Below, piece after piece: positions 4,885-63,111 of a stretch of DNA of 64,000 nucleotides. The notes under the pieces were generated by a model, which saw only the letters and a list, made by a program, of their open reading frames with translations, did not search any database and was not told the DNA's origin. The stretch is taken from positions 58,968-122,967 of the IMG/VR virus record IMGVR_UViG_3300029822_000001; one strand, 5' to 3'. The position numbers were made by a program, and so were the translations under genes. This stretch comes from a virus. The stretch's first letter is position 1. Each line of letters starts with the position of its first letter.

Positions 4885-5055
4885 CCTTTCTATGGCTTAA
4901 TCACGTGAACTACTCGGTCATGAAGGACCAAGCTTCTGGGAACACTGCTTACTTACACAGTAGTGTCTAGCACTCCATGCAGAGGTTACAGCTATTTACC
5001 ACGGCTCGTTCCGAACCTAGTTAGTCAATTATTTATTAGCTTGGTTTTCGCTAAC
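4885..5055 (-). ncRNA. predicted stand-alone TnpB omega-RNA; scaffold ends ...AGUUCAC, guide GUGAUUAAGCCAUAGAAAGG
   Basis: Homology to the two other right ends stops exactly at TTCAC; promoter directly upstream. Confidence 0.7.
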
Positions 5056-5151
5056 AACTATAGTATATCACATACTATTTATTTGTCAAGATTATACCTT
5101 ATCTCAATGCATCTCGTCACTAAAGTAACAAGCTTTCTCAATTGGCACTGA
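4905..5151 (-). mobile_element. non-autonomous IS200/IS605 mini-element: left-end hairpin, promoter and omega-RNA, no protein gene
   Basis: 4905-5028 aligns with the right ends at 38485 and 61686; hairpin CTCGTCACTAAAGTAACAAG at 5113-5132 nearly identical to that at 61694-61713. Confidence 0.85.
5062..5089 (-). promoter_or_regulatory. sigma-A promoter driving the orphan omega-RNA
   Basis: TTGACA-16nt-TATACT with TG extension. Confidence 0.7.
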
Positions 5152-5494
5152 TTATAACATATACATGTTTAGAGCCATCCTCAACCTGATAGATACGCTT
5201 TTCATGGTCTTCCATATAATCTTTCATATAAGCTAGACTATCAAATTTGATGTATTTATACAAACTTGGATGAATACCACCCTGGTAGTTATTTAACTTC
5301 CTTAGTTGTTCAGCTAAGTCCTGATAAGTGGAAAACACTAAGTATGAATTGTCCTTTACTGATACTTTAATTAAGTAAGCAATAAGATTAGCATAACTAT
5401 TTGAATCAATTCCTTGTGATTCAGAAAATACTTTCCAGTTAACCTTATCTGTTCTCTTTTGTGCATAGGCAATAAACTTATTGTTACTCATCAT
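5138..5494 (-). CDS. hypothetical protein
   Basis: ORF; ATG at 5494 preceded by GAGGA is preferred to TTG 5518, which lies inside the IS end. Confidence 0.65.
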   Translation of the reverse strand: MMSNNKFIAYAQKRTDKVNWKVFSESQGIDSNSYANLIAYLIKVSVKDNSYLVFSTYQDLAEQLRKLNNYQGGIHPSLYKYIKFDSLAYMKDYMEDHEKRIYQVEDGSKHVYVIISAN

Positions 5495-5507
5495 ATCTGC
5501 TATCCTC

Positions 5508-5676
5508 TTGCTTTCCAAATTGTGTAAAAACGTTACTAATAGTTAGATTTTAGTAACTACAATTTAGTCATCACCGTCAACATCAGTATTCTGACTTGGA
5601 AATTTATTCCTTACCACATTGACTGACTCTTGTGACCTTTCATCTGGGTGAAGCCCACCCAGTCATAGTTATAGCA
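5508..5676 (-). ncRNA. probable omega-RNA scaffold of the 5677-6846 TnpB
   Basis: Non-coding, several hairpins (CTGGGTG/CACCCAG, GTTACTAA/TTAGTAAC) directly 3' of tnpB. Confidence 0.55.
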
Positions 5677-6846
5677 TTACGCTACATAATTCTTAATATT
5701 TTCTACTGCGTTCTCATCTCGGTCTAAGATAGCCCCACAATTATAACAGTAATATTTTTGGTGATTGTGGTGAATACTATCTCCAGATAAGGTTTGCTTA
5801 CCTCCGTAACCATCTTTGGTCTTAAGATATCCACAAACACTACATATTTGAGTAGAAGGATATAGTCTGTCGACTAAGACCAGTTTACGATTATTCCATT
5901 CACACTTATAGGTTAAGATTTCCCTAAATTTACCAAATAGAGAACGGTGTAAATTCTTTCCCATTTTTTTACTCATCATCATTCCATGGACATTTAAGTC
6001 CTCAATATGAATTTCGGAATAGGTTGAGACAATCTGACAAGTAAATTGATTTAGAATATCCTTCTGTAAATTAGTAACTTTTTGGTAAACACGTCTAAGT
6101 TTGGTTTTCACTTTCATGTACCTTTTAGTTTTGAAATTACGAGGATTTTCTAATCGCTTTCGAGCCAACATTCGTTGGTAATGAGTAATTCTCTGATAGT
6201 ATCGTTCCAACTTTTTGGGGTAAATAGCTATTTGTTGACCATCATTATAATTAAAATGTCTAACATTAACATCTATCCCAACAATTTCACTGGTCTTAGG
6301 TACTATTTCGTTATGGGATGTATCAAACACTAAACTGGCATAGTAGCCGTCTGCCTTTTGAGTAATGGTACATAACTTCAATTTTCCCTCAAACCGAGGG
6401 GTTTCTCGCAGTTTAATCCCATACCAGACTGACTTACTAATCCCTTGAGGCTTGTCTAACGCTAACTTTCCACTGACAAGACGAGCTCTATCAGTAGAAA
6501 AGTTCGGTTTGTAGCTCTTTTTTGATTGAAACCTTGGTTTCCCCTGGTTAAGCATGTTTGGATTCCAAAAGCTCTTCCAAGCTTTCTCTAAACTACTTAC
6601 AGCTTGCTGAAGAACTCTAGGCGAGCGAGAATACTGCCAATCTTGCTTATTACTAACTAGTTCATTTCTAACTTTGCTGTTGTTGGGTCTTAAAGCTTTA
6701 TCACCTAAAATGCTTGATTCGTCATACATATCGTTCCAAGTAGCTAAGGCCTGATTCCAACAGTATCTTCGATAATTGAATAAGTCTTCAATTACCCTAG
6801 TCATATGAGCATTGGGCTCAATTTTAACTTGATGAGTTTTTATCAT
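5677..6846 (-). CDS. tnpB: RNA-guided endonuclease TnpB
   Basis: RuvC I GIDVN, II IEDL, III DRDENA; Zn finger CSVC...CYNC. Confidence 0.93.
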   Translation of the reverse strand: MIKTHQVKIEPNAHMTRVIEDLFNYRRYCWNQALATWNDMYDESSILGDKALRPNNSKVRNELVSNKQDWQYSRSPRVLQQAVSSLEKAWKSFWNPNMLNQGKPRFQSKKSYKPNFSTDRARLVSGKLALDKPQGISKSVWYGIKLRETPRFEGKLKLCTITQKADGYYASLVFDTSHNEIVPKTSEIVGIDVNVRHFNYNDGQQIAIYPKKLERYYQRITHYQRMLARKRLENPRNFKTKRYMKVKTKLRRVYQKVTNLQKDILNQFTCQIVSTYSEIHIEDLNVHGMMMSKKMGKNLHRSLFGKFREILTYKCEWNNRKLVLVDRLYPSTQICSVCGYLKTKDGYGGKQTLSGDSIHHNHQKYYCYNCGAILDRDENAVENIKNYVA

Positions 6847-6884
6847 CTTTATCTATGTTCACTTCCTTTATAGGTTATGAACAT

Positions 6885-6913
6885 AGTTTACCACTTTTGA
6901 GTATACGTGTCAA
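6885..6913 (-). promoter_or_regulatory. sigma-A promoter for tnpB
   Basis: TTGACA-17nt-TAAACT with TG extension; -35 overlaps the HU stop codon. Confidence 0.65.
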
Positions 6914-7221
6914 TGATTTGTATCCCTACTATTATCCTCCATATCCTTAATCAACTTAAGGGATTTGTACTTCACATGTACCCGTTTAGGTACCTTGACC
7001 ATTGTTTTAGTTTTAATACCATCATAATGGTACCCAGCACTTTTAGTTACTGGTTCCATTAGTACCAGTTTCATCAGCTTTACTCGATTACCAGATTCCA
7101 GCTCATCCATGATAACATCTTGTAAAGAACTAAGTACCTTATCAATATCTTTACAGTACATTTCTGGATTACGCTCCTGTACCTTATAAATTAACTCTGA
7201 CTTATTAACTGAACGTGACAT
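6910..7221 (-). CDS. HU/IHF-like DNA-binding protein
   Basis: NKSELI...L..G..V.L pattern, beta-arm with VPKR; position before polA as in Twort-like phages. Confidence 0.8.
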   Translation of the reverse strand: MSRSVNKSELIYKVQERNPEMYCKDIDKVLSSLQDVIMDELESGNRVKLMKLVLMEPVTKSAGYHYDGIKTKTMVKVPKRVHVKYKSLKLIKDMEDNSRDTNH

Positions 7222-7888
7222 ATGTTTCCACCTCCTTGTTGATTAGTTCCTTCTTATCTTCATCACATAGAAGTTTCAATTGCATGAGAATACGTGCCAT
7301 AAATTCATGTAGTTGTAAATAGTACCTGGATTGTACCTGTAATGTATCACTGTACTCTTCATCATGGTATTCTTTCTGTACCTTACTAGAAAAAGAAAGT
7401 ACAACCATATCTGTTAAGTATCGCAAAGGGTACAAAGCCTTAATTAAAGCCTCAGGACTGTCTTCCTTACTTGTGATAGGACAGTAAATAACAACTTTTA
7501 CTCCATTACAGTGATTGGCAGCATCAATATTTTCTATGTCTGAAATAGAGTACTCTTTTCTAACTAGGTAAACAACCTCTGCTCGTTTATTACCTTGAAG
7601 CTTGAGCAAAATGCCAATTGGCACAGTTGAGTTAGTATAATAGCTTACTCTGGCACTAGACTTAAAGATGCGACTATTCAAACTATCCATTTCAGAGCTG
7701 TCATGCCAAATAATAAAGTGATATTCTATCTGCTTTTCTGGCGGTAGCTTTAGTACCCGATTAACTTCTTTCTCATTAGTACGAGTAACCTTAACAACAC
7801 CTTTTTCAAAGTCTGTGTAGGACTCTAACTGATAGTTAGCCGAAGCATAACTATTATTTACATTTAAGTGCTTAATTCGTCTCATCAT
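7205..7888 (-). CDS. conserved phage hypothetical protein
   Basis: ORF overlapping both neighbours. Confidence 0.65.
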   Translation of the reverse strand: MMRRIKHLNVNNSYASANYQLESYTDFEKGVVKVTRTNEKEVNRVLKLPPEKQIEYHFIIWHDSSEMDSLNSRIFKSSARVSYYTNSTVPIGILLKLQGNKRAEVVYLVRKEYSISDIENIDAANHCNGVKVVIYCPITSKEDSPEALIKALYPLRYLTDMVVLSFSSKVQKEYHDEEYSDTLQVQSRYYLQLHEFMARILMQLKLLCDEDKKELINKEVETYVTFS

Positions 7889-8552
7889 TATTACCTTCTA
7901 AATTCGTCTCAATTATGTTACTTGTTTGTTCTGATACAGCATTCCACTCATCCTCTCCTTTACTTGCAGTACTCGTAACACGCTCCCACCAGTAAGCTCC
8001 CATCTCTCGTTGAATAGCACTATAGGTGCTAAAAACCTCTGTACAGTTTAAGCTGGTTAAGTCGTCCATAGTGGTTACTAACCAGTCTACGCCTGTAATT
8101 TGTTCTAAACGTTTATCTTGATAGGTATTATAAGTTCTAAAAGTCACCTTACTCTTAGTATACAAAGAATGGTACAATCTATTGCTATAAGGCAGCATAA
8201 CATAATCTGCTTCTCGATTAATGTGCATAATTAGTACTGGAATTGTATCCGCCCGATGAGCATCAGTAATAACCTGCTCCATAAATTGTTTTAGTTCCCC
8301 AGTACCCCAAACAATGTTTTTTAGAGTGATATCTCCATGATTTTTGCATTCATAATTAAACGGGTCAGGGTATCCAATAGGAGAGAATATATCTCCAATT
8401 AAACGAGCATCACTTCCATGTTCGCTACCAGCAGCACCGGAAGCCATAGTTCGACTATAGCTAACCCCAGTCCATTTAGTTAAGATTTTAGCAATAGTTC
8501 TCTCGTATCCAGAGCCTTTTACATGTCGATTATGACCATTAATTGCTGCCAT
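7872..8552 (-). CDS. Holliday junction resolvase (PD-(D/E)xK)
   Basis: KGSGYER...SGA...GDI...YECKN. Confidence 0.8.
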   Translation of the reverse strand: MAAINGHNRHVKGSGYERTIAKILTKWTGVSYSRTMASGAAGSEHGSDARLIGDIFSPIGYPDPFNYECKNHGDITLKNIVWGTGELKQFMEQVITDAHRADTIPVLIMHINREADYVMLPYSNRLYHSLYTKSKVTFRTYNTYQDKRLEQITGVDWLVTTMDDLTSLNCTEVFSTYSAIQREMGAYWWERVTSTASKGEDEWNAVSEQTSNIIETNLEGNNDETN

Positions 8553-9307
8553 TAGTGAATCATCCCTTGCGCGTTTAATGTCATGTAAATCTTGTTCAAC
8601 CGGTCTACATGTCGAATAACCTTAGCAAAATTAGTATCCAAAGGAAGTACCTTTTGAAGAGTACCACTAGCTACAGAAGGAATAGTTGATACATCATGTT
8701 TTACTTTTTTAACTACCTCTGGTGTAAACATCTTTTTAAACTCATCAAGTGTCAGTTGACCCTTTAGAGACAGGTATAATTCATCTACTTCAGCAAAGGA
8801 TAAAAGGGCACCTGGATTATGATACATAATAATGGCGAAGCTGCCGTCAGTTAAGTAAATATAAGATACTTTTACTGTACCTAAACCAATTAGTTCCGCT
8901 AATAGGTGGTCATAATTGATACTGTCAAGTACTAGCTTGTTACTATCATCTACATTAGCAATATTCTTAACAAAGGATACTACTTGCTGATAAAACAGGT
9001 CAGCGTTAGTGCTACCACTATGGTACATAACATAGGGTGCCACTGTACTTCCATCAGGAGTTATTAAGGATACACCTAAGGAATTAATAACAGCAGATAG
9101 ATTGGAATCCATAGCATCGGCAGTATCTTCAACAACAGTACCTAATGATAAGCTGCTTGAAAACTTTGCTAGGCTAACAGGATTAACACGGGAAGAAGCA
9201 ATAACACTAATAGTTTCCTTTAGACTATAAGGAGCTCCTTCCATAAAGTCTGTATATTTTTTCTTAGCTACCTTCAATTTATTCACTATCCTTTTTATCC
9301 ATACCAC
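8552..9307 (-). CDS. hypothetical protein
   Basis: 251-aa ORF coupled to neighbours. Confidence 0.65.
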   Translation of the reverse strand: MVWIKRIVNKLKVAKKKYTDFMEGAPYSLKETISVIASSRVNPVSLAKFSSSLSLGTVVEDTADAMDSNLSAVINSLGVSLITPDGSTVAPYVMYHSGSTNADLFYQQVVSFVKNIANVDDSNKLVLDSINYDHLLAELIGLGTVKVSYIYLTDGSFAIIMYHNPGALLSFAEVDELYLSLKGQLTLDEFKKMFTPEVVKKVKHDVSTIPSVASGTLQKVLPLDTNFAKVIRHVDRLNKIYMTLNAQGMIH

Positions 9308-10015: not shown

Positions 10016-10093
10016 AGTGAACCCCCCTTATATCAGTTTATATTTATATTTTACCACATCCTTGTGCTAATTTTGGGTTTCTCTAGTTGGACT

Positions 10094-10128: not shown

Positions 10129-10146
10129 AATTTATTACCTTATATC

Positions 10147-11233: not shown

Positions 11234-11235
11234 GA

Positions 11236-13145: not shown

Positions 13146-13305
13146 CTGCTACAATAAACTTATAAAATATTACTAATATAAGTCTAATTTCCTGTTTCTT
13201 CCTGTCCCCGTTCTACTATTAGATTAGTAATAGCTACTTAGGTTTGTATGACAGTCCACAAGCGTAAATTCCTGTCTAGCCAACAGTACATATTTAAGCA
13301 GTAGT
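13146..13305 (-). ncRNA. probable omega-RNA scaffold of the 13306-14517 TnpB
   Basis: 160-nt non-coding structured region directly 3' of tnpB. Confidence 0.55.
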
Positions 13306-14517
13306 TTAATAGGCTAACTTAAATTTGGAAGTAATACAAATATTCTCACTAGCATTAATGTCTCTATCTAAAACAGACCCACAATTGGGACAAGCCCACT
13401 TTCTTACTTTAAGAAACTTTTGGCCCATATTCCTAAACTCTTCATTGTAGAATCCACATTGAGAACATGTCTTAGAGCTAGGATAAAATCTATCTACCAA
13501 GTGTACTGGTATTCCTAACCATTGACACTTATTAACTAGTCTAACCCGAAATCTGTAGAACTTCTGTTGCTGAACTTGCTTAGCTAAATGGTGATTTTTA
13601 AGCATTCCACTAACGTTTAAATCCTCTATTGCTATATATTGTGGCTTGGTTCTCACCACATCGGCAATAATTTTATCCTGATAATCGTTTAAGACATTAG
13701 CGATTCTTCCATTTAGCTTAAGAATTTTATCTTGTGTATCTGACAGGTTGAAATCAGTAGTAGCTCTCCTCTCATATTTGTTTTCTTTCAGTCTTTGTTT
13801 ATAGTCCTGATACTGACGGGACTCTTTTCTTTGTAATCTTCTTAACCTTTTCCTAAGCCTTTTTAATCTAGCAGACTTGTTAAGGTTCTTATAGACTGTA
13901 CCCTTATTTAATATGGCAAAGTCTTTAATACCCAAATCTACTCCAATAGCTTCTCCAGTAAGGTTAAGTTTACTAAAATCTGGTTGCTCTACTAGAGCAG
14001 TTAAATAGTATCTACCCGCTCTCTCTTTTATTCTACCAGAAATAATTCTAAAATCGTCACCTACTGGAATATACCCCTGCTCTTTATATCTAACAAACCC
14101 TATCTTAGGCAACTTTATTCGATATTTATCGTACCTAACAGGTTGAGACTTACTATTAGCACAAAAGTAATAAGAACCTTGATGCTTTCTAAGACTTCTA
14201 AATTTAGGTTTTCCTCTTATGTGCCTAAAGAATGCTTTCATGTTGGTATCAGCATCTATCATAGCTTGCTTAACATGTTTAGCATAATAATCCTTTATCC
14301 ATAAATCACTAGGATTATCCTTTAAGTATTGATTATTAAACCAAGTAGAAAAAGTGTAAGCACTCATATATGATTTGGAATCATGCGTTTCTCGGTAGTT
14401 TTTATTGTTTACTTCGAGAAACTTATTGTAAACCCAACGACTAACACCGATATAAGAATTAATCTGCCACTTTTGAGCCTTATTTAGTTTTAATTCAACT
14501 TTATAGGTTATTTGCAT
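13306..14517 (-). CDS. tnpB: RNA-guided endonuclease TnpB
   Basis: GVDLG, IEDL, CSQC...CPNC, DRDINAS. Confidence 0.93.
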   Translation of the reverse strand: MQITYKVELKLNKAQKWQINSYIGVSRWVYNKFLEVNNKNYRETHDSKSYMSAYTFSTWFNNQYLKDNPSDLWIKDYYAKHVKQAMIDADTNMKAFFRHIRGKPKFRSLRKHQGSYYFCANSKSQPVRYDKYRIKLPKIGFVRYKEQGYIPVGDDFRIISGRIKERAGRYYLTALVEQPDFSKLNLTGEAIGVDLGIKDFAILNKGTVYKNLNKSARLKRLRKRLRRLQRKESRQYQDYKQRLKENKYERRATTDFNLSDTQDKILKLNGRIANVLNDYQDKIIADVVRTKPQYIAIEDLNVSGMLKNHHLAKQVQQQKFYRFRVRLVNKCQWLGIPVHLVDRFYPSSKTCSQCGFYNEEFRNMGQKFLKVRKWACPNCGSVLDRDINASENICITSKFKLAY

Positions 14518-18399: not shown

Positions 18400-19849
18400 A
18401 ATTGGTCATGATATTCTCTCGCTTACTAGTCGCTTTACTCTGCTTTTGCTTGTACTCTTCTTTAGTGCTATTATACGTGTCGTCTACCAATTGATGATGT
18501 TCTGCCTCCTGCTTATCATCTTCCATGCCATAGCGAAGGTTCTCCTTGTTGAAGGAGAAGTAAAGAAATTTATCTTTAACTAACTCCCGGTCACGCATTT
18601 TATCTAAATAGAGTCTAGCATACCCTTCCTTACGTTCTTCTGCATTAATGTTTAATGTGGCAACAAAGCTACAGATGTTTTGCTTACGATAACTTCCTTC
18701 AACATCGCTAAAACTCATAATTTCTTTGCTATTAGCCCCACGTCCTAATTGAGAACCGGTAATTAATAGTACATCATTTTCTTGAGCAATCTTAGATAGT
18801 CCCTGATAAATAACTTCTCCATCCATAGAGTCGTTACCAGTTTTATGAGCACCTGCCATCAATTCTGGGTAGTCTAATACAACTACATCAATTGTATCGC
18901 CATTAAGCTTACGATTAGCGGAAACAATCATCTGGTTAACATCATCTAATCCACAAGTACCTGGCATTTTTGCAACGTATAATAGATTCTTAGTATCCTC
19001 ATACCGATTATAATTATTATACACTGAACGAAGCCCTTCATTAGTACTATCAAGACCTTTTAAGATGTCCTTTCCACTCATTCCAGACATAATCTTATCA
19101 AAACGTAGCATCTGTTCAGCATCAATTTCTTCCAAAGAAATATGAAGAACATTATATCCTTCTCGTACCATGTTACTAGATAAATTAGTCAGCATTGTCG
19201 TTTTACCATAACCAGATAAAGCAGCAATTAAAGCAATCTTTTTCTTAGCTAAGCCACCTTTTAACACATAGTCCAAATTAGAAAAACCTGTTGGAATCTT
19301 TTTTTCAAATAGCTTCTTGTACAGCTCAATTCGACCAGCAAAGTTTCCAGTGACATCTTCAAATTCATCATTGTTACCCATAAGGTTAATAGATTTAATA
19401 TCATCTAATCGTTTTCCTAAGGTCTCTTCAATGTTCTCTGGCTCTTTACTTACTTCATCATAAATAGCAGCTTCTGATAAGTTCTTCTTAACGTACTTAT
19501 TCAATTCACTTAACATTTCATCAGAAGTATCCTGATTGGTATCATACAAAGAATCAACATAATTGTACCAGTTTGAAAGTTCGGCGTCACTCATAGGGGA
19601 CTCACCATTTTTAACTTTTTGTTGTTCCCTACGTGATAGAGAGTCTTCTAACCGAGACTTCATTACGTCAATAGTCATTAAGTCATTATTACTGTAATAG
19701 TATCGACTAATGATTTTAGAGATAGTTAAAGCGGGGTCTTCAGAGAATAGCTGTAATGGTGCCTTCGAGAAAATTGTTTTGGCTACTACAGGACGATTTA
19801 AGCCACAAATTAATAACTGCTGTTGGATGGTACTATTAGTGTGAATCAC
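18392..19849 (-). CDS. DnaB-like replicative helicase
   Basis: IPTGF..LD, Walker A SGYGKT, SLEE, VVLDY, SQL. Confidence 0.9.
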   Translation of the reverse strand: MIHTNSTIQQQLLICGLNRPVVAKTIFSKAPLQLFSEDPALTISKIISRYYYSNNDLMTIDVMKSRLEDSLSRREQQKVKNGESPMSDAELSNWYNYVDSLYDTNQDTSDEMLSELNKYVKKNLSEAAIYDEVSKEPENIEETLGKRLDDIKSINLMGNNDEFEDVTGNFAGRIELYKKLFEKKIPTGFSNLDYVLKGGLAKKKIALIAALSGYGKTTMLTNLSSNMVREGYNVLHISLEEIDAEQMLRFDKIMSGMSGKDILKGLDSTNEGLRSVYNNYNRYEDTKNLLYVAKMPGTCGLDDVNQMIVSANRKLNGDTIDVVVLDYPELMAGAHKTGNDSMDGEVIYQGLSKIAQENDVLLITGSQLGRGANSKEIMSFSDVEGSYRKQNICSFVATLNINAEERKEGYARLYLDKMRDRELVKDKFLYFSFNKENLRYGMEDDKQEAEHHQLVDDTYNSTKEEYKQKQSKATSKRENIMTNFV

Positions 19850-21150
19850 ATTAAACCTTCTTTCATTTTGTTCAGGTCTGGCAGAATACTGTTATATCGT
19901 AATGGGATAATATCTGGCATATTACTGATGATATCAGAGAATGAATAATACCGATTATCTTGAACCTGCTTGGATAGTGAAATAAAGTCACCTGTTATAC
20001 GCGTATTCATCTTAGTGAATGCCTCTGATTTGTCTGAATCAGATAGTGTATCGGCGTCTTTTTGGCCTACCCAACCAGCAATAACTTCATCAATATTACT
20101 ACTACTTACCATATCTGTCAATGAAGGATTAAATACAGCACTAATTCGAGAGCCCCGACCATTAAAGACAACAGACAAGTACTTAATCAATGAAGTGTAT
20201 AACTTTTTATCATCTTTAAACTGTAACAAAAACTTGTACAAGTACTCATTATCTGGATTGGTTAGAAAAGCTACTTCTTTACTATCTATTTCTGAGGCTG
20301 AATCTACAATGGTACCCCAGTCTTGATGCTCAACACAAATCTTTGTTAACATGTAGTTTAAGGCAGAAATATTAGTATCTCTACCAAACTTAATACTTTG
20401 ATGTCCCTCTGTTGCGTAGTATTTATTCTCATCAAATGCTTTACGGTCATATTCTATCTGGTTATTATAGGCTTGTACTGCTTTCTCACCAAATACTGCA
20501 TTAGGATAAGGAATACTATTACCATTACTTACATGTTGATAGTATCCAAATACTGAAGACATATAGTAAACAGGATTGATTTTATTGTCATAACAAAAAG
20601 TAAATAACTCAGAAAAGGTAATTCTTGATGACTCTAGGTAAAAGGAATCTAAAGCCCTTTGAGAATTATTGTATAATTTGCTGTACCGATTGTATACATC
20701 TGCTAGTAATTTGACATAAAAATCTTGTAATCCTGCTCTATTGTCCTTACGTACCTTTTGAAAAGCAGATAATTGATAGTGATTCTCCTGTAGATACTGG
20801 TCTGCTCTACTCTTTGATGAACGACTCTTTAACTCTTCTGGTAAAGAAAACTTACTTACCTTTACTTTTTTAGGAACTCTCTTAGGAGATTTTTCTTTAG
20901 GTGTGTTGTCAAACTTGTGATAGTCACCTGCAAAAGATATAATAACTCCACCAGAGCGTCCTCGCTTGGATTCTACACTAATTCTACCTTCTGCTGCTAA
21001 TTCTTTGATAATTCTTGTTGTTTGCCTTACTGACTTTTCAATCTTACTTGCTATATCTGTGTATGTAGCTTTTACGCTACCGCCTTCTAAGCCTAGATAT
21101 AGGTACAGTTTTTCCAATACCGTCTGCTGTTTAATAATAGCTGCATCCAT
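19846..21150 (-). CDS. Rep-like protein with N-terminal winged HTH
   Basis: TYTDIAS...SVRQ...L...G.I...RGRSGG; position before DnaB as in Twort-like phages. Confidence 0.65.
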   Translation of the reverse strand: MDAAIIKQQTVLEKLYLYLGLEGGSVKATYTDIASKIEKSVRQTTRIIKELAAEGRISVESKRGRSGGVIISFAGDYHKFDNTPKEKSPKRVPKKVKVSKFSLPEELKSRSSKSRADQYLQENHYQLSAFQKVRKDNRAGLQDFYVKLLADVYNRYSKLYNNSQRALDSFYLESSRITFSELFTFCYDNKINPVYYMSSVFGYYQHVSNGNSIPYPNAVFGEKAVQAYNNQIEYDRKAFDENKYYATEGHQSIKFGRDTNISALNYMLTKICVEHQDWGTIVDSASEIDSKEVAFLTNPDNEYLYKFLLQFKDDKKLYTSLIKYLSVVFNGRGSRISAVFNPSLTDMVSSSNIDEVIAGWVGQKDADTLSDSDKSEAFTKMNTRITGDFISLSKQVQDNRYYSFSDIISNMPDIIPLRYNSILPDLNKMKEGLM

Positions 21151-38392: not shown

Positions 38393-38411
38393 AGTATCAC
38401 CTACTTTCTTC

Positions 38412-38480
38412 CCTAATATATAACGACTAACCCTTAGTGGTTAGTCGCTACTACTTAAATCACTCTGAACTTTAGCTTGA
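38412..38480 (-). repeat. diverged direct repeat of 39806-39875 (gene 3' end plus hairpin)
   Basis: 38442-38480 vs 39837-39875: 38 of 39 nt identical. Confidence 0.92.
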
Positions 38481-38608
38481 TTGAGTGAACTACTCGGCCA
38501 TGAATGACCGAGCTTCTAGGAACACTGCATACTTACACATTAGTGGCTAGCACTACGTGCAGAGGTTACAGCTATTTACTAGGGCTCGTTCCGAGCCTGA
38601 TTAGTCGG
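38465..38608 (-). ncRNA. predicted omega-RNA of intact IS605-type TnpB; guide UCAAUCAAGCUAAAGUUCAG
   Basis: Right end homologous to 4905 and 61686, ends TTCAC at 38485. Confidence 0.75.
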
Positions 38609-39745
38609 TTAAGCGCTTAAGATATTTTTTGCAGCATTAATGTCTCTATCATGATGTATACCACAATTAGGGCATGTCCACTGACGAACATCTAAAGTAT
38701 GTTTACCGTCGTCATAGCCACAGTTAGAACAAATCTGACTGGTTTTTCTAGGATTAACGGTGACTAACTGTTTCCCATACCAAGTGCATTTATATTCTAA
38801 CTGTCTTCTAATTTCTCGCCATGACTGATTAGCAATTGCTCGAGCAAGTTTATGATTCTTAAGAAGATTTTTGATTTTCAAATCTTCGATTTTAATCACG
38901 TCATATTTCTCGACTAACTGCTTGGTTAGGTTATGCAGGTAATTACTCCTTTGGTTAGCTACCTTTTCACTATATTTAGCTACCATATGTTTTGCTTTAA
39001 GGTAGTTATTGAAGTCAGATAGCTCTCGTGGCTCCATTACTTTATTGTGGTGGTCCCAAGCAATTTCTTTCATAGCTTGTAGTCTTCTACGAGCTAACCG
39101 TTTCTCCCAGTAATGCTTCTTTTTAGCAAGAAGTTTATCAAACCTAATAGTCGGATACTTAATACCATCACTAGTAATCATTAAATCAGCAACTCCCATA
39201 TCAATCCCTACGGATGTACCGGTACTTTCCAACCTATTGCATTCAGTATCAACCAAAACAATAGCATAGAACTTTCCAGTAGAAGACAACCTAATAGTTA
39301 CATTCTTAATTTTACCAGTAATCTGATGACCTGACCTAAAATAAACAGTTCCTAACTTAGGCAACTTAAGTCGATGTTCACCAACCTGACAAATATTTTT
39401 GTTGTAGGTTGATTGATAACTTTGTTTAGGAAACTTACGGGATTTAAACTTAGGGTACCCTGAGTGCTCCTTAAATAGCTTCTGGAAAGAACTATTTAAG
39501 TCTCTACTAACATGTTGTAAACTACTTGACTCTGCCATCTTAAGAAAAGGGTATTCCTGTTTTAAACACTTAATCAGGTAGTTCATACCAAACTCATTTA
39601 CGTACGAACCACCATTTTTATATCGTTCAATCTGCATGTTAAGCAATTGATTCCACACAAATCTACAGCATCCAAAAGTATTAACTATTTTGTACTGTTG
39701 CTCAACATTAGGATATATTCTAGTTTTGACAGCTTTTAACGTCAT
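38609..39745 (-). CDS. tnpB: RNA-guided endonuclease TnpB (IS200/IS605 type), intact
   Basis: K.RIYP, FGCCRFVWN, GIDMG, IEDL, CSNC...CPNC, DRDINAA; ATG 39745. Confidence 0.95.
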   Translation of the reverse strand: MTLKAVKTRIYPNVEQQYKIVNTFGCCRFVWNQLLNMQIERYKNGGSYVNEFGMNYLIKCLKQEYPFLKMAESSSLQHVSRDLNSSFQKLFKEHSGYPKFKSRKFPKQSYQSTYNKNICQVGEHRLKLPKLGTVYFRSGHQITGKIKNVTIRLSSTGKFYAIVLVDTECNRLESTGTSVGIDMGVADLMITSDGIKYPTIRFDKLLAKKKHYWEKRLARRRLQAMKEIAWDHHNKVMEPRELSDFNNYLKAKHMVAKYSEKVANQRSNYLHNLTKQLVEKYDVIKIEDLKIKNLLKNHKLARAIANQSWREIRRQLEYKCTWYGKQLVTVNPRKTSQICSNCGYDDGKHTLDVRQWTCPNCGIHHDRDINAAKNILSA

Positions 39746-39805
39746 TTTATTCACCACCTTATGATTTAATTATAGCATATTTTCAGAGTAAGGAGTGGAT
39801 TCACT

Positions 39806-39875
39806 CCTAATACAATAGCGACTAGTCGCTAAGGGCTAGTCGCTACTACTTAAATCACTCTGAATTTTAGCTTGA
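39806..39875 (-). repeat. second copy of the repeat, forming the current 3' end of gene 39836-40414
   Basis: See 38412-38480. Confidence 0.92.
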
Positions 39876-40414
39876 TTAAACAGAACAGTAACAAAGTTTT
39901 CAATAAAGCCTAAATCTATCTCTGCACGTCGTAAGTACCTTACAAGGTATCTGTACTCTTGAATTGAGCTACACCAATCAGCAACAAAGGATAAATTATC
40001 TCTTACTCGTTTAACATCATGGGATGATAAATATTCAAAGTAGGACATATCATTATTCATACAAAACATAATCGAAGTTATTTCTAAACAAACTCCTTGA
40101 AGTATTTTATACGTGGCTGGGTTATTGATTTTCATATTACTCTTCATTATTGCTGTAATCATTTTGTCAGATACATCTGTGTCATAATCAGGAAAACACT
40201 GATTAAGCTTACTTGTGTACAAAGTATAGGAACAATCTGATATAGCTAAGTTATACCCTTTTTCACTTCCATAGTCTCTGACTAGTTCATTAGTAGGAAT
40301 ATCTAAAGTACTACCATTGTACATAGGAGTTCCTTTAAGAAAGGTTAAATAACTTGCAGGGAGCATATAGTAGTCAGTATCTAAGTCGTCTGAAGCATCT
40401 ACTAAGTCATTCAT
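39836..40414 (-). CDS. putative baseplate-region structural protein
   Basis: ORF with AGGGGG RBS; synteny. Confidence 0.6.
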   Translation of the reverse strand: MNDLVDASDDLDTDYYMLPASYLTFLKGTPMYNGSTLDIPTNELVRDYGSEKGYNLAISDCSYTLYTSKLNQCFPDYDTDVSDKMITAIMKSNMKINNPATYKILQGVCLEITSIMFCMNNDMSYFEYLSSHDVKRVRDNLSFVADWCSSIQEYRYLVRYLRRAEIDLGFIENFVTVLFNQAKIQSDLSSSD

Positions 40415-57755: not shown

Positions 57756-57774
57756 ATCTTAGCCTTCAACTAGG

Positions 57775-57966: not shown

Positions 57967-57980
57967 ATGACTTGTCCCCT

Positions 57981-58871
57981 TTACTTGTACCTAATTGTAC
58001 CATTATTATTAATTTTACTAATAACAGCACCCGCATCAACGTCCACTGACTGTGTTACTTTATAGGCAATTTCTGCTCGTCTATAATATAACTGCTGTCC
58101 AGAAGTAGAGTTAGTTGGACTAGTTATCTCTTCAATTAGGTCAGAACCATTAAACGTAATGTGTGGTAAAATTATATTGGAGTTCTCTGATAATGAGCTT
58201 CTCATACGAATAAATATTGCTTGCATTAAGCTGGTTAAACACCTAAGTATCCCTTGATTACTAGAAACAATGTCTAACGTATAGGTACCAACTAAATTAA
58301 TACCTAATCGACTAGTGTGCTTGTAAGCAGCCTTATTTCCTCCTGTAAGCTCTCTTACTGGATTGTATATAACAGTTACAGTGTGACTACCAGGAAGCGT
58401 ATATGGGGGTATTTTTGGAAGATTAACCCTATTATTCTTAAAACTATATCCGCTAGATAAATACATTACAGATAACAAAGATACAATTGAATTACTTGTT
58501 GTTACATAAGGGTTACCTTGATTATCCAGAAATACCTCTAATTTTTCCTTTAAAGTATCACCTTCAGCGTATTCTCCATAACTCGCTTCGTCCATACCAA
58601 TAGAACCACTCTCGTCGTCTTCATCTGAACCCTTAAACTGTAAGAGAATAAAAGTTCCATTTTCTTTAACGTTGGGAAAAGTAAATACCACTGGTAAAGG
58701 TACTCCTCTATTACTTTTATCCGTACAAAAAGTAGTACAAAATTTATCAACAACTTCTGAAGGTAATTCCCCCAAAATATCATTTTTAACTAAAGTACTA
58801 TTACTTAGTATTGAAGATAAATTGTCACTTATCGTTTTCTCTAGGTAGTACTCTATGTTAACAATTGGCAA
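57981..58871 (-). CDS. neck/tail-terminator-like protein
   Basis: Synteny; V.FTFP, LYYRR. Confidence 0.6.
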   Translation of the reverse strand: MPIVNIEYYLEKTISDNLSSILSNSTLVKNDILGELPSEVVDKFCTTFCTDKSNRGVPLPVVFTFPNVKENGTFILLQFKGSDEDDESGSIGMDEASYGEYAEGDTLKEKLEVFLDNQGNPYVTTSNSIVSLLSVMYLSSGYSFKNNRVNLPKIPPYTLPGSHTVTVIYNPVRELTGGNKAAYKHTSRLGINLVGTYTLDIVSSNQGILRCLTSLMQAIFIRMRSSLSENSNIILPHITFNGSDLIEEITSPTNSTSGQQLYYRRAEIAYKVTQSVDVDAGAVISKINNNGTIRYK

Positions 58872-58887
58872 TAGCTACTCCCTCTTT

Positions 58888-59547
58888 CTATACATGTTTC
58901 ATTGCATCAGTCAGCGCATTAACAATACTACTTCTTATCATATCAATGTTAGGAGAGTCCTCGCTAAATGCCTGTCTACCTACAATCCAAGAACGAGGGT
59001 CAGATTTATCAGATACGGTTCTAAAAGAAATGTAACTTCCGTATTTTCCAGAAGGGCCTTTTTGTATTCTAGTAACATTGGAAGACTTCCATTTATAATT
59101 AAGTTCTGGTATTGTCTGATTACCTTGATTACTCTGAGAACCAAATCCCTGCTCTAAATAGTTGTTTACTTCGTCGGATAACTGACTAGTACTTCCAAAA
59201 GGACTATGTGATACTGTATTCCACAAACTTCTAGGACTAGACGCTTTAAGGTCACTAGCCTTATTACCAATAGGAATGACCATGTACCAGCCACCATTTT
59301 TCTTACGTTTCCGCTTACTACTTTTAGCAAAGTATTGTTTCATATCAATGAACTTTATACCTTGTCTTCGAGCGTAAGCCTGCAAATAAGGCATTGTAAT
59401 CGTTACCTGATTATTGTCTGCTCTAATAGATAAAGAAGGCAATTTATCTTGAAGAGCATTTGCATAATTCTTAGCGTACTCTTTGGTATCCTTTTGTGTA
59501 TCTAAAGATTGCTGAAGAAACCTTTTTACATCTTCTCTATTATCCAT
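58888..59547 (-). CDS. neck/tail completion protein
   Basis: IDMK..F..S.K......GGWY.VIPI, Y.SFRTVSDKS...SWI. Confidence 0.65.
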   Translation of the reverse strand: MDNREDVKRFLQQSLDTQKDTKEYAKNYANALQDKLPSLSIRADNNQVTITMPYLQAYARRQGIKFIDMKQYFAKSSKRKRKKNGGWYMVIPIGNKASDLKASSPRSLWNTVSHSPFGSTSQLSDEVNNYLEQGFGSQSNQGNQTIPELNYKWKSSNVTRIQKGPSGKYGSYISFRTVSDKSDPRSWIVGRQAFSEDSPNIDMIRSSIVNALTDAMKHV

Positions 59548-60445
59548 TAGTATCACCAGCAAAGAAACTGTTATCTACCGTTATCTTGCTATCTTGTACC
59601 TGGTTAGGATTACTATTAGAACCCTCGGTAAAGTTATAGTCAGTAAAGAATAGGTCTTCACGACGAAGTACAAGTTGCTTAGGCATATGCCAAAGAATAC
59701 TACCAGAACCTTTAAGACCACTGTAGTCTGTACCATAAGCTGCAATGTACTTGTCAAGATTAATATTTCCATAAGCAGTAGCCGCTCTTTTTTCCTCCAT
59801 AGAAGACGTTAAAGCATACCTAGTTTCACGAATAATATTAGCTACATAAAAACGAGTAGCCACTGACAGTCTCATAGAGATACTTAGACCAATATAGTCA
59901 CTATTTAGTACTGTTAGAATACTAGAGGTACTATCATATTTATAATCAGTATCCTTCAAGTAAACTAACTTACCATCAGATAAAGTATAAACATCATCAA
60001 ATGAAGTTACCTTGTAAGGAATAAAAATTCCTTTATTATACCTCTCTGTAGTTAAATTAAAGATATATTGTTGGGAACGACTAACATCTGGAACAGTAAT
60101 TCTGTCACGAACACCAATACCATTTTCAATGGCATTCTCTGTCATCTGAGGAGTTGCGTATGTTGTACCTAATGAAGCTAACCCGTAGTTACCTGTATAT
60201 GCTCCTTGATTATCTGATGAGAAACCAAATGCTAAGGTATAAGGGTCTTTAAATATAATTCCTTGACCTTTACAGATTGGACAATTAGGGTCAGCATCAC
60301 CACTAGAATCCCGACATGGACAATAAATAGCTTGTTCCCATAAACAATCACGAGAGTTGACATCTAATGTCTTGTATATAGCAGAGATACTAACAGTTTT
60401 AAAGTGACTAGGATAATACCCTGAACGTAAATCCTTTCCTGCCAT
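59540..60445 (-). CDS. head-closure/connector protein
   Basis: WEQA..CPC......CP.C.G.G, RDRIT. Confidence 0.65.
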   Translation of the reverse strand: MAGKDLRSGYYPSHFKTVSISAIYKTLDVNSRDCLWEQAIYCPCRDSSGDADPNCPICKGQGIIFKDPYTLAFGFSSDNQGAYTGNYGLASLGTTYATPQMTENAIENGIGVRDRITVPDVSRSQQYIFNLTTERYNKGIFIPYKVTSFDDVYTLSDGKLVYLKDTDYKYDSTSSILTVLNSDYIGLSISMRLSVATRFYVANIIRETRYALTSSMEEKRAATAYGNINLDKYIAAYGTDYSGLKGSGSILWHMPKQLVLRREDLFFTDYNFTEGSNSNPNQVQDSKITVDNSFFAGDTNG

Positions 60446-60460
60446 ACTTAGTACCCCCCT

Positions 60461-61402
60461 TTAAGCTATAACTCCAATGTTAGTTCCATAGTATGCCTTC
60501 AATCTTGACTGATTATCCTTCATGTCTGACTTCAACAGATTAATATCAGCGGTTGAAGCTGTATACTCGGCACTTTGAGTAGTTTCAATACGAGAACTCA
60601 TGTTATCAATAGATGCTTCTTCACCAGCAATACCAGGACCTAAAATATTACGTCCCCAACGTTCTAGTACTTGAATAGCACCCTTCTTGGCAATATAAGC
60701 TGCTAAGTCTGGTTGTAGTTGCCAATCGGTATAACGATAGTCCCAGGCACTAGGTAACATACCACAAACATATTGTACCCCAATCATTTGCGGAGCAAAC
60801 TCATGATTGTCTACGGGTGGTGTACCATAAGGGTAACCGGTAACAGCTAAGTATGGTACATTAACTCCACCACCCCAGGAACTAGCAAGTAAACTAGGCT
60901 GTATCTCTAACTGACCAGCCCGTTCATTAACCTTTAACCAGTCCTGTGGATAGTTGAGAATGGTCTGGTTATTAAAATAAAGTTTAACCTGTTCTACATA
61001 CAAAATAGGTCTAAAGTACGTCCTAGTGTACATAAAAGAGTTAAAATCTCCTCTTGAGTAATCTAAGCGGTCAAACTTTTCTCGTGGCAAAATAGTTATA
61101 TCAAATTCCTTTTCTGTGTCTGCAACAGATTGGTCAATCAGACCAATGTAAAAGTCATCAGACCAGGGTTCATCTGTAATAGGGTCGGTTAAAGAGTATT
61201 CCATACCTTTTAACTGGTCCTTAATAGCGGCAGGGGTTAAGCCAAAGTCTTCATAGCTTAAATCAAGGTACGTTTTACCGTTCTTTATTTCCAACAAGTG
61301 GTTTATGTTTCCATCAAAACCACCTTCCAAATAGTTATTCCCAGGTACATCCTGAGAATTTTTGGATACCTTAATAAACTTATTTAAGTTATCTACTGAC
61401 AT
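60461..61402 (-). CDS. head-tail adaptor protein
   Basis: FGLT..AIK, E..FDI.ILPR, RPI, APQ.I.V.Y..G, GIA....ID, ETTQSA. Confidence 0.7.
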   Translation of the reverse strand: MSVDNLNKFIKVSKNSQDVPGNNYLEGGFDGNINHLLEIKNGKTYLDLSYEDFGLTPAAIKDQLKGMEYSLTDPITDEPWSDDFYIGLIDQSVADTEKEFDITILPREKFDRLDYSRGDFNSFMYTRTYFRPILYVEQVKLYFNNQTILNYPQDWLKVNERAGQLEIQPSLLASSWGGGVNVPYLAVTGYPYGTPPVDNHEFAPQMIGVQYVCGMLPSAWDYRYTDWQLQPDLAAYIAKKGAIQVLERWGRNILGPGIAGEEASIDNMSSRIETTQSAEYTASTADINLLKSDMKDNQSRLKAYYGTNIGVIA

Positions 61403-61441
61403 TGAGTATCCTTCTTTCTTGTAGTTATCTGTAGATAATAT

Positions 61442-61467
61442 AAAAGCCCTCTGAAAAGAGAGCTTTT
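61442..61467 (-). terminator. intrinsic terminator
   Basis: AAAAGCTCTCT/AGAGGGCTTTT hairpin. Confidence 0.65.
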
Positions 61468-61478
61468 ACTATCGTATA

Positions 61479-61664
61479 TTATTTAGTTACTGTGGCAGTA
61501 CTTGTATCAATAACAGACGATAAGTCTCTACCGGTAATAGACTTGAACTGTTCTGGAGTTAACCAAATGTTACTCTTGCCCGTTGGATCCGTTTGTTTAA
61601 CCAGTTCATCCAAAGTAATTGTATCCCAATAATTATAGGCATTGTAAAAAACATCGTATAACAT
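61479..61664 (-). CDS. XkdX-like small protein
   Basis: AAGGAGG RBS; WLTPEQFKSITG. Confidence 0.65.
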   Translation of the reverse strand: MLYDVFYNAYNYWDTITLDELVKQTDPTGKSNIWLTPEQFKSITGRDLSSVIDTSTATVTK

Positions 61665-61665
61665 A

Positions 61666-61809
61666 TATATACCTCCTTATTTACTGTGAACTACTCGTCA
61701 CTAAAGTAACGAGCTTCTAGGAACACTGCATACTTACACGACAGTGTCTAGCACTCTGTGCAGAGGTTACAGCTATTTACTAAGGGCCGTTCCGGCCCAA
61801 TTTAGTCGT
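61666..61809 (-). ncRNA. predicted omega-RNA; guide AGUAAAUAAGGAGGUAUAUA
   Basis: Homologous to 38485 and 4905 scaffolds. Confidence 0.7.
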
Positions 61810-63111
61810 TTACGCGTTTAAGATATTGATGGCTGCATTGATATCTCTATCGTGGTGCGTGCCACAATGTGGGCATGTCCACTGCCTAACATCTAAGGTA
61901 TGTTTGCCATCATCATAGCCACAATTAGAACAAATTTGACTAGTTTTTCTAGGATTAACAGTGACTAACTGTTTTCCATACCAAGCACACTTATATTCTA
62001 GTTGAGAATGCAGTTCTCACCAAGCTTGATTAGCAATTGCCCGAGCTAGCTTATGATTCTTAAGAAGATTTTTGGTTTTCAAATCCTCTATTTTAATCAC
62101 ATCATATTGCTCTACTAACTGTTTGGTTAGGATATGCAGGTAGTTACTTCTTTGGTTAGCTACCTTTTCACTGCATTTAGCTACCATATGCTTAGCTTTA
62201 AGGCAATTCTTGAAGTCTGATAGTTCTCTTGGTTCCATTACTTTGTTGTGATGGTCCCAAGCAATCTCTTTAAGTGCTTGTAGTCTTCTACGAGCTAACC
62301 GCTTCTCCCAGTAATGCTTTTTATTAGCTAAAATCTTATCAAACCTAACAGTTGGATACTTAACTCCGTCGCTGGTAATCATTAAATCAGCAACACCCAT
62401 ATCAATGCCAACCTCATCAGCTGTTTTTGGGAGTCTGTTAACTTTAGTATCAACTAAAACAACTGCATAGAACTTACCAGTAGAAGATAACCGAATAGTT
62501 ACATTCTTAATTTTACCAGTAATCTGACGACCTGACTTAAAGTAAACAGCTCCTAACTTAGGCAACTTAAGTCGATGTTCATCAACCTGACAGATATTTT
62601 TGTTGTAACTTACTTGATAACTTTGTTTAGGAAACTTACGCGATTTATACTTTGGATGCCCAGAGTGCTCTTTAAACAGTTTCTGGAAAGCGTTATTTAA
62701 GTTTCTACTAACATGTTGTAAACTAGTTGATTCTGCTTTCTTAAGAAATGGGTACTCTTTCTTCAACTGTACAATCAGGTAGTCCATACCAAACTCACTA
62801 ACAAACTTACCACCATTGTGGTATCTTTCAATCTGCATGTTAAGTAACTGATTCCACACAAATCGGCAACATCCAAAAGTATTAACTATTTTGTACTATT
62901 GTTCAACAGTAGGATATATTCTAGTTTTGATAGCTCTTAATGTCATTTTATTCACCTTCTTTTAAGTTTATTATACTATCTTTTACAACCTAATGCAATT
63001 CATCACGTCCTTAAAAGAACGCGTCTTCTTGCATTAACTAATAAATAAAGGGCCCAATAGTGTCCTATCCATTTCATGACTAAAGTCGCGGGATTTCCGG
63101 CTAATATTATT
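61686..63111 (-). mobile_element. IS200/IS605-type tnpB-only element inserted 3' of TTTAA
   Basis: Left-end hairpin GACTTTAGTC; right end TTCAC; removal restores AGT TTA AAG TAA. Confidence 0.8.
61810..62946 (-). pseudogene. tnpB: tnpB pseudogene with two nonsense codons, frame otherwise intact
   Basis: Same length (1137 nt) as 38609-39745; CAG>TAG at 62896-62898, CGA>TGA at 62017-62019. Confidence 0.9.

Follow-up and report, generated by a model that had tools for sequence, protein, structure and literature searches.

A 64,000-nucleotide (nt) stretch of viral DNA, comprising bases 58968-122967 of the 122,967-bp virus record IMGVR_UViG_3300029822_000001 (rated 87% complete), carries three dispersed copies of one RNA scaffold together with an intact and an interrupted gene for the nuclease TnpB. 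We call this whole stretch the window, and the scaffold and its cognate nucleases the alpha family. The phage has probably been colonised by a TnpB-only family of the IS200/IS605 type and by guide-only derivatives of that family, which would persist and spread among recombining virulent phages by RNA-guided homing, with the nuclease supplied in cis or in trans; we favour this reading while leaving substantial room for doubt. Element B would be a working unit, with a promoter, an intact gene for a RuvC nuclease and an omega-RNA, and element C would be a unit of the same type that lost its tnpB recently. Cassette A would take as its guide the 16-20 nt of phage DNA that follow the motif TTCAC. 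TnpB from any compatible full copy (B, or D and E elsewhere in the record) would load its own RNA as well as the pseudogene-linked and protein-free RNAs, and each complex would then recognise its own locus wherever a related, co-infecting phage has it without the cassette, and cut it there, after which recombinational repair would copy the cassette across, much as in the homing of free-standing endonuclease genes in T-even phages. In this way the guide-only cassettes would ride on the nuclease of their larger relatives. The anatomy of the elements, the structure of the RNA and the selection acting on it, the distribution of the family, the empty sites and the matches between guides and empty sites are observed directly, and are described in turn below.

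All large open reading frames (ORFs) of the window lie on the minus strand, as do the elements, genes and RNA features located in it below. The window is 93-95% identical across 82-86% of its length to Lactobacillus phage 3-521, a member of the Herelleviridae (genus Watanabevirus) that infects L. brevis, and by this similarity its source is assigned to a virulent Herelleviridae (Watanabevirus-like) phage of Lactobacillus brevis. Phage 3-521 serves as the main reference for insertions and empty sites.

The alpha scaffold is a structured RNA under selection

Alignment of the three sites in the window yields one common block of ~125 nt, each copy of which terminates in GAGTAGTTCAC. Similarity among the three scaffolds stops directly after this sequence, and the 20 nt past the scaffold end begin with GTGATTAAGC at 4905, TCAATCAAGC at 38485 and AGTAAATAAG at 61686. 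A covariance model built from the family (R1) gives minus-strand hits of 121-133 bits for the three scaffolds, at 4905-5029, 38485-38609 and 61686-61810. The scaffold of cassette A (genome 63872-63996; 121 bits) keeps 33 of the 34 consensus pairs, has its TTCAC at 4909-4905 and is 89% identical to that of element B (127 bits, 34/34 pairs), which adjoins the tnpB stop codon; the scaffold of element C scores 133 bits and keeps 33/34 pairs. A preliminary description of the stretch had listed three homologous scaffolds ending in TTCAC at 4905, 38485 and 61686, each followed by an unrelated guide. Alignment and covariance model bear out the former, and the end of all similarity at TTCAC the latter, although unrelated guides carry no extra meaning, since a guide is whatever adjoins the insertion.

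The fold was evaluated on an alignment of 18 family members, made up of 8 copies in this genome, a single copy in 3-521 and 9 in IMG/VR contigs. The RNAalifold consensus contains 34 pairs in six helices, with compensatory changes in 14 of the pairs. Standard pairs occupy 96.7% of the 611 pair cells, compared with 31-47% when partners are slid by 1-3 columns; because the structure was derived from the same sequences, this proportion of paired cells is inflated, whereas the count of double-change cells (73 observed vs. 22.8 in shuffles) is not. The observed covariation score was reached by none of 500 shuffles. Counted per sequence, protein-free copies keep 30-34 of the 34 pairs (94-100% pairing in 11 of the 12 aligned), 33 are kept by the pseudogene-linked copy of element C, and 32-34 by copies adjoining an intact gene. 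When scaffold conservation is set against the decay of tnpB, the RNAs of the window's protein-free and pseudogene copies (A and C) are as intact as the linked ones (33/34 each vs. 32-34). The scaffold RNA is real and under selection.

In the alpha family, a conserved fold adjoins the 3' end of tnpB, similarity ends at TTCAC or TTCAT, and a variable guide then follows. These features support the assignment of the scaffolds, on sequence grounds, as omega-RNA-type right ends of TnpB elements. The suggestion in the preliminary description that a right-end RNA is combined with a guide derived from the flank likewise stands, given the conserved fold and the guides that differ between copies. The alpha scaffold matched no Rfam family at the gathering score, nor at E values up to 1 on 38400-38800; among the TnpB-associated RNAs here, that of the gamma element (described below) alone matches a family, RAGATH-18.

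Intact and interrupted tnpB genes of the alpha family

Element B (38485-39805) is a 1321-bp insertion relative to 3-521 and contains an intact tnpB of 378 codons from its ATG (38609-39745). B, C, D and E all contain the motifs GIDMG, IEDL and HHDRD/NHDRD; we take GIDMG, IEDL and HHDRD to carry the catalytic D, E and D of the RuvC domain. Protein B matches the Pfam domains HTH_OrfB_IS605, OrfB_IS605 and Cas12f1-like_TNB, all above curated cut-offs (ORF 38612-39757), and, over residues 4-375 of 378, the solved ISDra2 TnpB (8h1j, 8bf8/8ex9/8exa; E 2.7e-62), and is thus predicted to be a TnpB RuvC nuclease. Element B is without a left-end hairpin and is flanked by a 74-bp duplication, with the upstream copy at 39806-39879 and the other at 38411-38484; the two BLAST segments accordingly overlap on 67641-67714 of 3-521. 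The duplicated sequence consists of the 3' end of a membrane-protein gene and a downstream hairpin, and it is the upstream duplicate that now encodes the C-terminus of the membrane protein.

Element C (61686-63111) is a clean insertion after TTTAA without duplication (1413 bp relative to 3-521 by BLAST). Its tnpB (61810-62946) is a pseudogene with TAG at 62898-62896, TGA at 62019-62017 and no frameshift. The left end (62947-63111), the boundary of which was set by comparison with the empty site of 3-521, contains two motifs consisting of a hairpin and ATGAA(A/T), and a promoter-like site (TTGCAT-17-TATAAT). A metagenome contig of 1760 nt (L082) carries an allele of element C at the same site, with 90.9% identity over 1510 nt; there the tnpB frame is uninterrupted and encodes 383 residues, seemingly starting with TTG. 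Two more alpha genes, both intact, lie elsewhere in the record: tnpB D (genome 3574-4719), 85% identical to B and part of an element that is a 1366-bp insertion relative to 3-521, and tnpB E (genome 10095-11234), 73% identical to B, in an element that is a 1350-bp insertion.

Synonymous divergence (dS) among tnpB B, C, D and E is 0.70-3.9, and the ratio of nonsynonymous to synonymous divergence (dN/dS) is 0.06-0.12. With dS of 0.7 or more, B, C, D and E are old, distinct lineages and not the product of a recent burst within this genome. The dN/dS of pseudogene C against B and D (0.11-0.12) is that of the intact B-D pair (0.12), so C appears to have been constrained for nearly all of its history, and its tnpB to have been knocked out only recently, by the two nonsense mutations.

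These results alter the picture given by the preliminary description. It was right that one tnpB (61810-62946) carries two nonsense codons and that none adjoins 4905. Its single intact cognate gene is correct for the window (38609-39745) but not for the record, which holds three intact alpha genes (B, D and E); two of these lie beyond the window, the edge of which created the impression of a single intact TnpB. The notion of a single-effector system cannot be retained in a record with three intact alpha TnpBs and three intact TnpBs of other families. Decay of the protein with retention of the RNA describes element C, with its nonsense codons and 33/34 pairs, but not cassette A, which is a 249-bp mini-element.

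Cassette A and other protein-free cassettes

No tnpB-alpha coding sequence adjoins the scaffold at 4905. The scaffold is part of a whole protein-free mini-cassette of 249 bp (4905-5153, the left boundary being uncertain by a few nt), seen in whole-genome BLAST as a 249-bp insertion relative to 3-521 (gap at genome 63872-64120). Three further protein-free cassettes, of 254-258 bp or similar, occur in the same genome, with scaffolds at 5338-5445 (o5338), 13653-13766 (o13653) and 19746-19854 (o19746). Four parts make up cassette A: a left-end hairpin, a promoter (TTGACA-16-TATACT), a hairpin in the leader, and the scaffold. The left-end-type hairpin (5113-5132) reads CTTGTTACTTTAGTGACGAG, then ATGCAT, and resembles the right-end hairpin of scaffolds C and D; the end-hairpin sequence of the alpha elements is CTCGTTACTTTAGTGACGAG. 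Upstream of the promoter, both A and o5338 have the hairpin CTYGTTACTTYAGTGACGAG followed by ATGCAT or ATGAAT, as expected for left ends of the IS200/IS605 type, and the same left-end hairpin with ATGAAT is present in o5338 and in two cassettes of the IMG/VR record G001. By alignment, the module from the -35 hexamer to TTCAC is common to all four protein-free cassettes of the genome; in o13653, nothing aligns upstream of the -35 hexamer.

The predicted sigma-70-type promoter of cassette A (5062-5089; TTGACA, 16 nt, TATACT, the -10 hexamer being preceded by TG) ranks first among the promoter-like sites within 4200-7300, matching at 11 of 12 positions. Since a simple promoter scan gave no overall enrichment (15 sites vs. 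12.2 expected), the case for a promoter is made by conservation of the hexamers across cassettes and not by the scan: the strict pattern TTGAC[A/T]-N15-19-TA[T/A/G]A[C/A]T is passed by 7 of 15 protein-free cassettes, and a near-consensus -10 is found at the same place in 12 of the 15. Between promoter and scaffold lies a leader hairpin (5035-5055) with the stem GTTAGC/GCTAAT and the loop GAAAACCAA (5041-5049), which is specific to protein-free cassettes. The loop does not vary among the 11 protein-free cassettes aligned, which come from four phage records or contigs; the stem shows changes on both sides in 5 of its 6 pairs, and 95.5% of its cells are paired, compared with 17-38% when slid. Searches by eye found neither a pairing partner of the loop in the scaffold nor a hairpin equivalent to the leader in the 3' coding ends of the linked tnpB genes.

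Being short, having the ends of the family, lacking an ORF and occurring in several copies, cassette A is best classified from its sequence as a stand-alone, putative omega-RNA gene of the palindrome-associated transposable element (PATE) type. Given the resemblance of the leader to the final ~35 nt of tnpB, the protein-free family probably arose by an internal deletion joining the left-end promoter to the 3' end of the gene. Cassette A itself, to judge from its being a 249-bp insertion whose conserved promoter and leader are found again in the three other protein-free cassettes of this genome and in further phages, would have arrived or spread as a mini-element and is not a locally decayed gene.

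One of the cassettes outside the window (genome 19730-19874, L062) adjoins nucleotide 1 of a tRNA-Gly and thus has the tRNA 5' end as its guide. In 3-521 this tRNA-Gly site is occupied too (13575-13718, L044), with a different scaffold subtype and without a cognate nuclease. Two RNA-library contig sets (X3 and X17), compared over 4200-7200, include short contigs on scaffold A (4931-5010 and 4933-5001) that continue into other flanks; as these are contigs and not reads, and as DNA is possible in such libraries, they are uninformative on expression. In run X5, contig depth over 4907-5007 is ~114 on the scaffold vs. ~16 in the flanks, and several different sequences follow 4905, which indicates that this food-fermentation metagenome holds many scaffold copies with other guides.

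Distribution in phages, bacteria and metagenomes

The whole record contains eight scaffolds, on which BLAST of scaffold B and R1 agree, and four alpha tnpB genes by protein search, three of them intact. Applied to five Lactobacillus phage records, R1 finds 21 scaffolds, 10 linked to tnpB and 11 protein-free. This genome contributes eight (four linked, four protein-free), as does G001, a complete IMG/VR genome of 139,820 bp, with three linked and five protein-free; phage 521B has three (two linked, one protein-free), ATCCB a single linked one, and 3-521 a single protein-free one. No alpha-family TnpB is present in 3-521, the only TnpB of which is 38.6% identical, and its cassette has the weakest structure (30/34 pairs). 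Within the present genome, the subtypes of the protein-free scaffolds match those of linked copies: A and o13653 are 89-91% identical to B, o19746 is 90% identical to C, and o5338 is 99% identical to D. Selection for compatibility could account for this matching, as could gene conversion between copies.

A scan of IMG/VR with the scaffold core gave nine matches at eight loci, all of them family members and five from G001. Among 185,579 bacterial species genomes, the exact core matched seven times; of the four matches inspected, two are family members in Lactobacillaceae and two are due to chance, the others being L034, L037 and L038. Both linked and protein-free relatives occur in the two Lactobacillaceae genomes. 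In metagenomes the core matched 32 times at 31 loci: seven matches have a TnpB-alpha upstream, four have the leader motif without a TnpB, one has too little upstream sequence, and 20 have neither the scaffold end nor tnpB. The ~250-bp RNA genes are unannotated in all deposited phage records examined, and their being missed is a caution for annotators.

Guides, empty sites and candidate target-adjacent motifs

In each copy the guide is the phage DNA directly after TTCAC, and it differs between copies. That of cassette A (4885-4904) is flank upstream of a deoxyribosyltransferase gene and matches 3-521 at 19 of 20 positions, where the empty site reads TATAT followed by GTAATTAAGCCATAGAAAGG. The guide of element B (38465-38484) has a 20/20 match in the 3' end of the 3-521 membrane-protein gene (TTTGT, then TCAATCAAGCTAAAGTTCAG). 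For element C the guide (61666-61685) covers the ribosome-binding site of the next gene and matches 3-521 at 18 of 20 positions (TTTAA, then AGTAAATAAGGAGGTATA). Contigs from two studies also join across cassette A, with X5 (DNA) skipping 255 nt and X17 (RNA library) 254 nt, and an X5 contig joins across the element of a second TnpB family (beta, described below), skipping 1429 nt; these loci are therefore polymorphic in nature. At up to four mismatches, the guides have no match beyond their own flank, the empty sites of relatives and local duplicates.

One such duplicate is the second copy of the B target, at 39879-39860, created by the 74-bp duplication. Relative to the guide it has mismatches at positions 2 and 15, and it is preceded by TCTGT and not by TTTGT, whereas the guide is identical to the downstream duplicate and to 3-521. 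The change in the motif (TTG to CTG) and that at position 2 (TTC to TTT) are synonymous, and the third replaces Val with Ile. The changes in the upstream duplicate may represent escape from self-cutting. Another duplicate adjoins element E (genome 11367-11453, L013), the guide of which has its first 16 nt perfectly matched 71 nt further on, inside the downstream PemK/MazF-like gene and after GACAT. A 36-nt tandem duplication of the start of that gene lies between the guide and its second match.

We sought the target-adjacent motif (TAM) in the empty sites of 3-521, in the metagenome joints and at the point where the left flanks of two G001 cassettes converge. The candidates TTTAA, TTTTA, TTTAT/TATAA, TATAT and TTTGT are all T/A-rich, and none is decisive.

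Homing and its alternatives

That element-free relatives carry empty sites matching the guides makes the cutting of co-infecting relatives, followed by homing, a reasonable model, and RNA-guided homing between co-infecting phages is plausible as far as sequences can tell. A search for the Y1 (HUH) transposase TnpA (PF01797) gave no match in the 122,967-bp record, with control genomes positive, which favours homing over autonomous transposition. Several points weigh against homing nonetheless. Transcription, processing, loading in trans, the TAM, cleavage and homing are steps that we infer. Scaffold C is only 84% identical to scaffold B, and TnpB C 86% identical to B and D, so that loading across subtypes is an assumption. 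For a simple insertion between genomes that are 93% identical, a match between guide and empty site is trivial; such matches are expected, and they show that targets exist, not that targets are cut. TTTAA at C, TTTGT at B and TATAT at A form no single clear motif, so that some sites may not be cleavable. Beyond the window, two of the protein-free cassettes stand in place of 390-535 bp of 3-521 sequence; not being simple insertions, they do not fit a clean footprint of homing or transposition. Phage 3-521 keeps an alpha-type cassette without an alpha TnpB, and cassettes can hence persist without the nuclease. Finally, with the record 87% complete, a tnpA could lie in the missing part.

A more ambitious form of the homing reading would see in the self-promoted omega-RNA genes more than parasites of TnpB and would treat them and their few nucleases as a dispersed guide repertoire that cuts many loci of competing relatives and drives each cassette, with the GAAAACCAA loop acting as a signal for loading or processing in trans. 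We put this forward tentatively, as a possibility that is on the whole rather doubtful. If true, the dispersed repertoire would amount to marker exclusion guided by RNA, and the system would represent a surviving transitional stage between the arrangement of one guide per transposon and that of many guides per effector. Movement by peel-and-paste transposition, with a Y1 TnpA provided by the host or another element, TnpB and omega-RNA serving only to restore excised copies and no homing from phage to phage, is unlikely but deserves to be taken seriously. It would agree with the IS200/IS605-type left- and right-end hairpins in A, o5338, C and D, with the clean insertion of C after TTTAA without duplication, and with the related linked and protein-free copies in two Lactobacillaceae genomes. 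It sits poorly with the lack of a Y1 TnpA in the phage record, with an element B that has no left-end hairpin and is flanked by a 74-bp duplication, and with a module in o13653 that starts only at the -35, the left end thus not being maintained; the exact core is also rare in bacteria (2 members among 7 matches, 4 inspected, in 185,579 species genomes).

The remaining alternatives seem to us a good deal weaker. The preliminary description held that three copies were once complete, that two lost their protein in place and that selection kept the RNAs, leaving one effector with three guides in a CRISPR-like system without an array. The window does present an intact tnpB, one with nonsense codons and a scaffold without any, all three copies have preserved the RNA structure, and C looks like decay that spared the RNA. 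The genome, however, holds three intact alpha TnpBs; A is a 249-bp insertion with a promoter and leader of its own, common to other protein-free cassettes, and has no tnpB remnant between the promoter and the last ~35 nt that resemble the tnpB 3' end; tnpB divergence among B, C, D and E amounts to a dS of 0.7 or more; and the same mini-cassette is seen at many unrelated sites. Decay in place is thus improbable for the set as a whole. We think it equally improbable that the protein-free cassettes have been co-opted as promoter and 5'-leader modules for downstream genes, with the scaffold a passenger or an RNA-stability element. Every cassette does point into the next gene (the deoxyribosyltransferase gene after A, tRNA-Gly after o19746), no terminator-like site follows TTCAC at A, the tRNA-Gly cassette is kept at the same site in 3-521 without a cognate TnpB, and the promoter hexamers are conserved. 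Yet the scaffold helices covary and stay paired in protein-free copies, neither of which a promoter role needs, site A works without a cassette in 3-521 and in metagenomic relatives, and the scaffolds correspond in subtype to the TnpB-linked copies of their genome. That the pseudogene and protein-free copies are inert relics drifting neutrally, for which one could cite the two nonsense codons in C and the 30/34 pairs of the 3-521 cassette, the weakest structure, is very improbable in view of the compensatory changes, the 94-100% pairing in 11 of 12 protein-free copies, the invariant loop and covarying stem of the leader, the conserved promoter, and the presence of copies at many sites in several phages.

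Relation to known systems

RNA-guided homing by TnpB has been shown for bacterial chromosomes. The alpha elements resemble those of ISDra2-type TnpB in that the protein belongs to the same family over its full length, with the same three Pfam domains, in that the RNA runs from at or just before the tnpB stop to the right end with the flank as guide, and in the clean insertion after a 5-nt motif (site C). They differ in that no tnpA was found in the record, the host is a virulent phage, the scaffold has no Rfam match, and a 74-bp duplication flanks element B.

The protein-free cassettes have their closest counterparts in PATEs, which, according to Meers et al. (bioRxiv 10.1101/2023.03.14.532601), are protein-free IS200/IS605 derivatives of bacteria that encode omega-RNAs needing TnpB in trans. 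A further preprint (bioRxiv 10.1101/2023.11.20.567912) describes TnpB activity as equal whether the omega-RNA is supplied in cis or, on a separate plasmid, in trans, and to that extent trans supply would be unproblematic in principle. The PATE-like elements of Geobacillus stearothermophilus and the C. difficile IStrons (10.1101/2023.03.14.532601, 10.1101/2023.11.20.567912) share with the cassettes described here their short length, transposon ends, lack of an ORF and dependence on TnpB from elsewhere. The present cassettes differ in their phage setting, in being as numerous as full elements (11/21) and in at least one copy without a conserved left end. They also have a conserved sigma-70 promoter and a leader with an invariant loop, although the supplements to the PATE reports may describe promoters of their own.

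That guide-only derivatives are served by TnpB in trans is thus already in print for bacteria. In this light, the multi-guide, array-free system of the preliminary description remains a fair analogy, for a network larger than that description saw, but the principle is not new. What is new is the phage setting, a self-promoted, guide-only family with a conserved leader hairpin, numerical parity with full elements, and the existence of cultured carrier and empty-site phages. We found no literature on TnpB/omega-RNA cassettes in Herelleviridae or L. brevis phages, subscription papers and supplements being outside the scope of the search, and the paper on the isolation of 3-521 and 521B (PMC6563214) contains no occurrence of transposase, IS605, homing or mobile.

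A second comparison is with the free-standing homing endonuclease genes of T-even phages, known for intronless homing and marker exclusion. There, as here, close relatives lack the nuclease locus, and a co-infecting phage with the empty allele offers the predicted target. In intronless homing the carrier's own target copy differs by a few substitutions, according to a review (PMC13565253), and on that account the target copy of the carrier at element B, which likewise differs by a few substitutions, is similar. The difference is that recognition here would be by RNA and not by protein, and one nuclease could serve many loci. Within the literature surveyed, transfer to co-infecting phages is mentioned nowhere else than in the same 2026 review, which lists "transposon non-restorative homing" into co-infected phages as a category in its Table 1.

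CRISPR-Cas12 (type V) shares with the alpha family a RuvC effector of common descent (Pfam Cas12f1-like_TNB) and would also share the use of several guides by one protein family. In the phage, no repeat-spacer array or adaptation genes were seen on reading the loci, no CRISPR finder having been run; by this reading every scaffold stands alone and has a single guide, set by the site of insertion, and every RNA comes with a scaffold and a promoter of its own. TldR proteins, the nuclease-dead TnpB relatives of prophages, are also phage-borne TnpB relatives with a guide RNA; here the RuvC motifs are intact, and matches to the guides are confined, local duplicates aside, to the guides' own flanks and the empty sites of relatives.

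The cultured L. brevis phages provide a natural test bed. Phage 521B is a carrier with two full elements and one guide-only cassette, and 3-521, also cultured, is empty at the window sites and without a cognate nuclease. With such phages, the drive of guide-only cassettes in trans, the reach of cross-loading among diverged subtypes, and the gain or loss to the carrier are testable.

TnpBs of other families and further features of the window

In addition to the alpha family, the record encodes three intact TnpBs (beta, gamma and delta) that are 28-30% identical to B. Two of them lie within the window, and the elements of all three are absent from 3-521. Pfam TnpB domains are above curated cut-offs in the beta and gamma proteins too. 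The beta TnpB (5677-6846) is 30% identical to TnpB B and not cognate to the alpha scaffolds; its element is a 1421-bp insertion relative to 3-521 (window 5495-6925). The 155 nt downstream of the beta tnpB (5509-5663), presumably the element's own guide RNA, are 88% identical to an unannotated stretch of phage Lbab1.

The gamma element (13189-14517) consists of tnpB (13306-14517) and, directly downstream, an Rfam RAGATH-18 match of 52.5 bits (13189-13262), exactly where the guide RNA of the gamma TnpB would be expected; it lies within 1526 bp that are inserted relative to 3-521. In phage 521B, the homologous region bears the annotation "transposase" and "resolvase", which suggests that the gamma element is a relative of the IS607 type.

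A different kind of insertion is found at window 1656-2010, where ~355 bp are present that are absent from 3-521. This stretch has no Rfam match at the gathering score, and is probably a group I intron. Its part 1663-1827 matches many Bacillus, Staphylococcus and Listeria phages. The insert splits the DNA polymerase gene, which in 3-521 is a single gene of 2958 nt, into the ORFs 903-1628 and 1974-4253.

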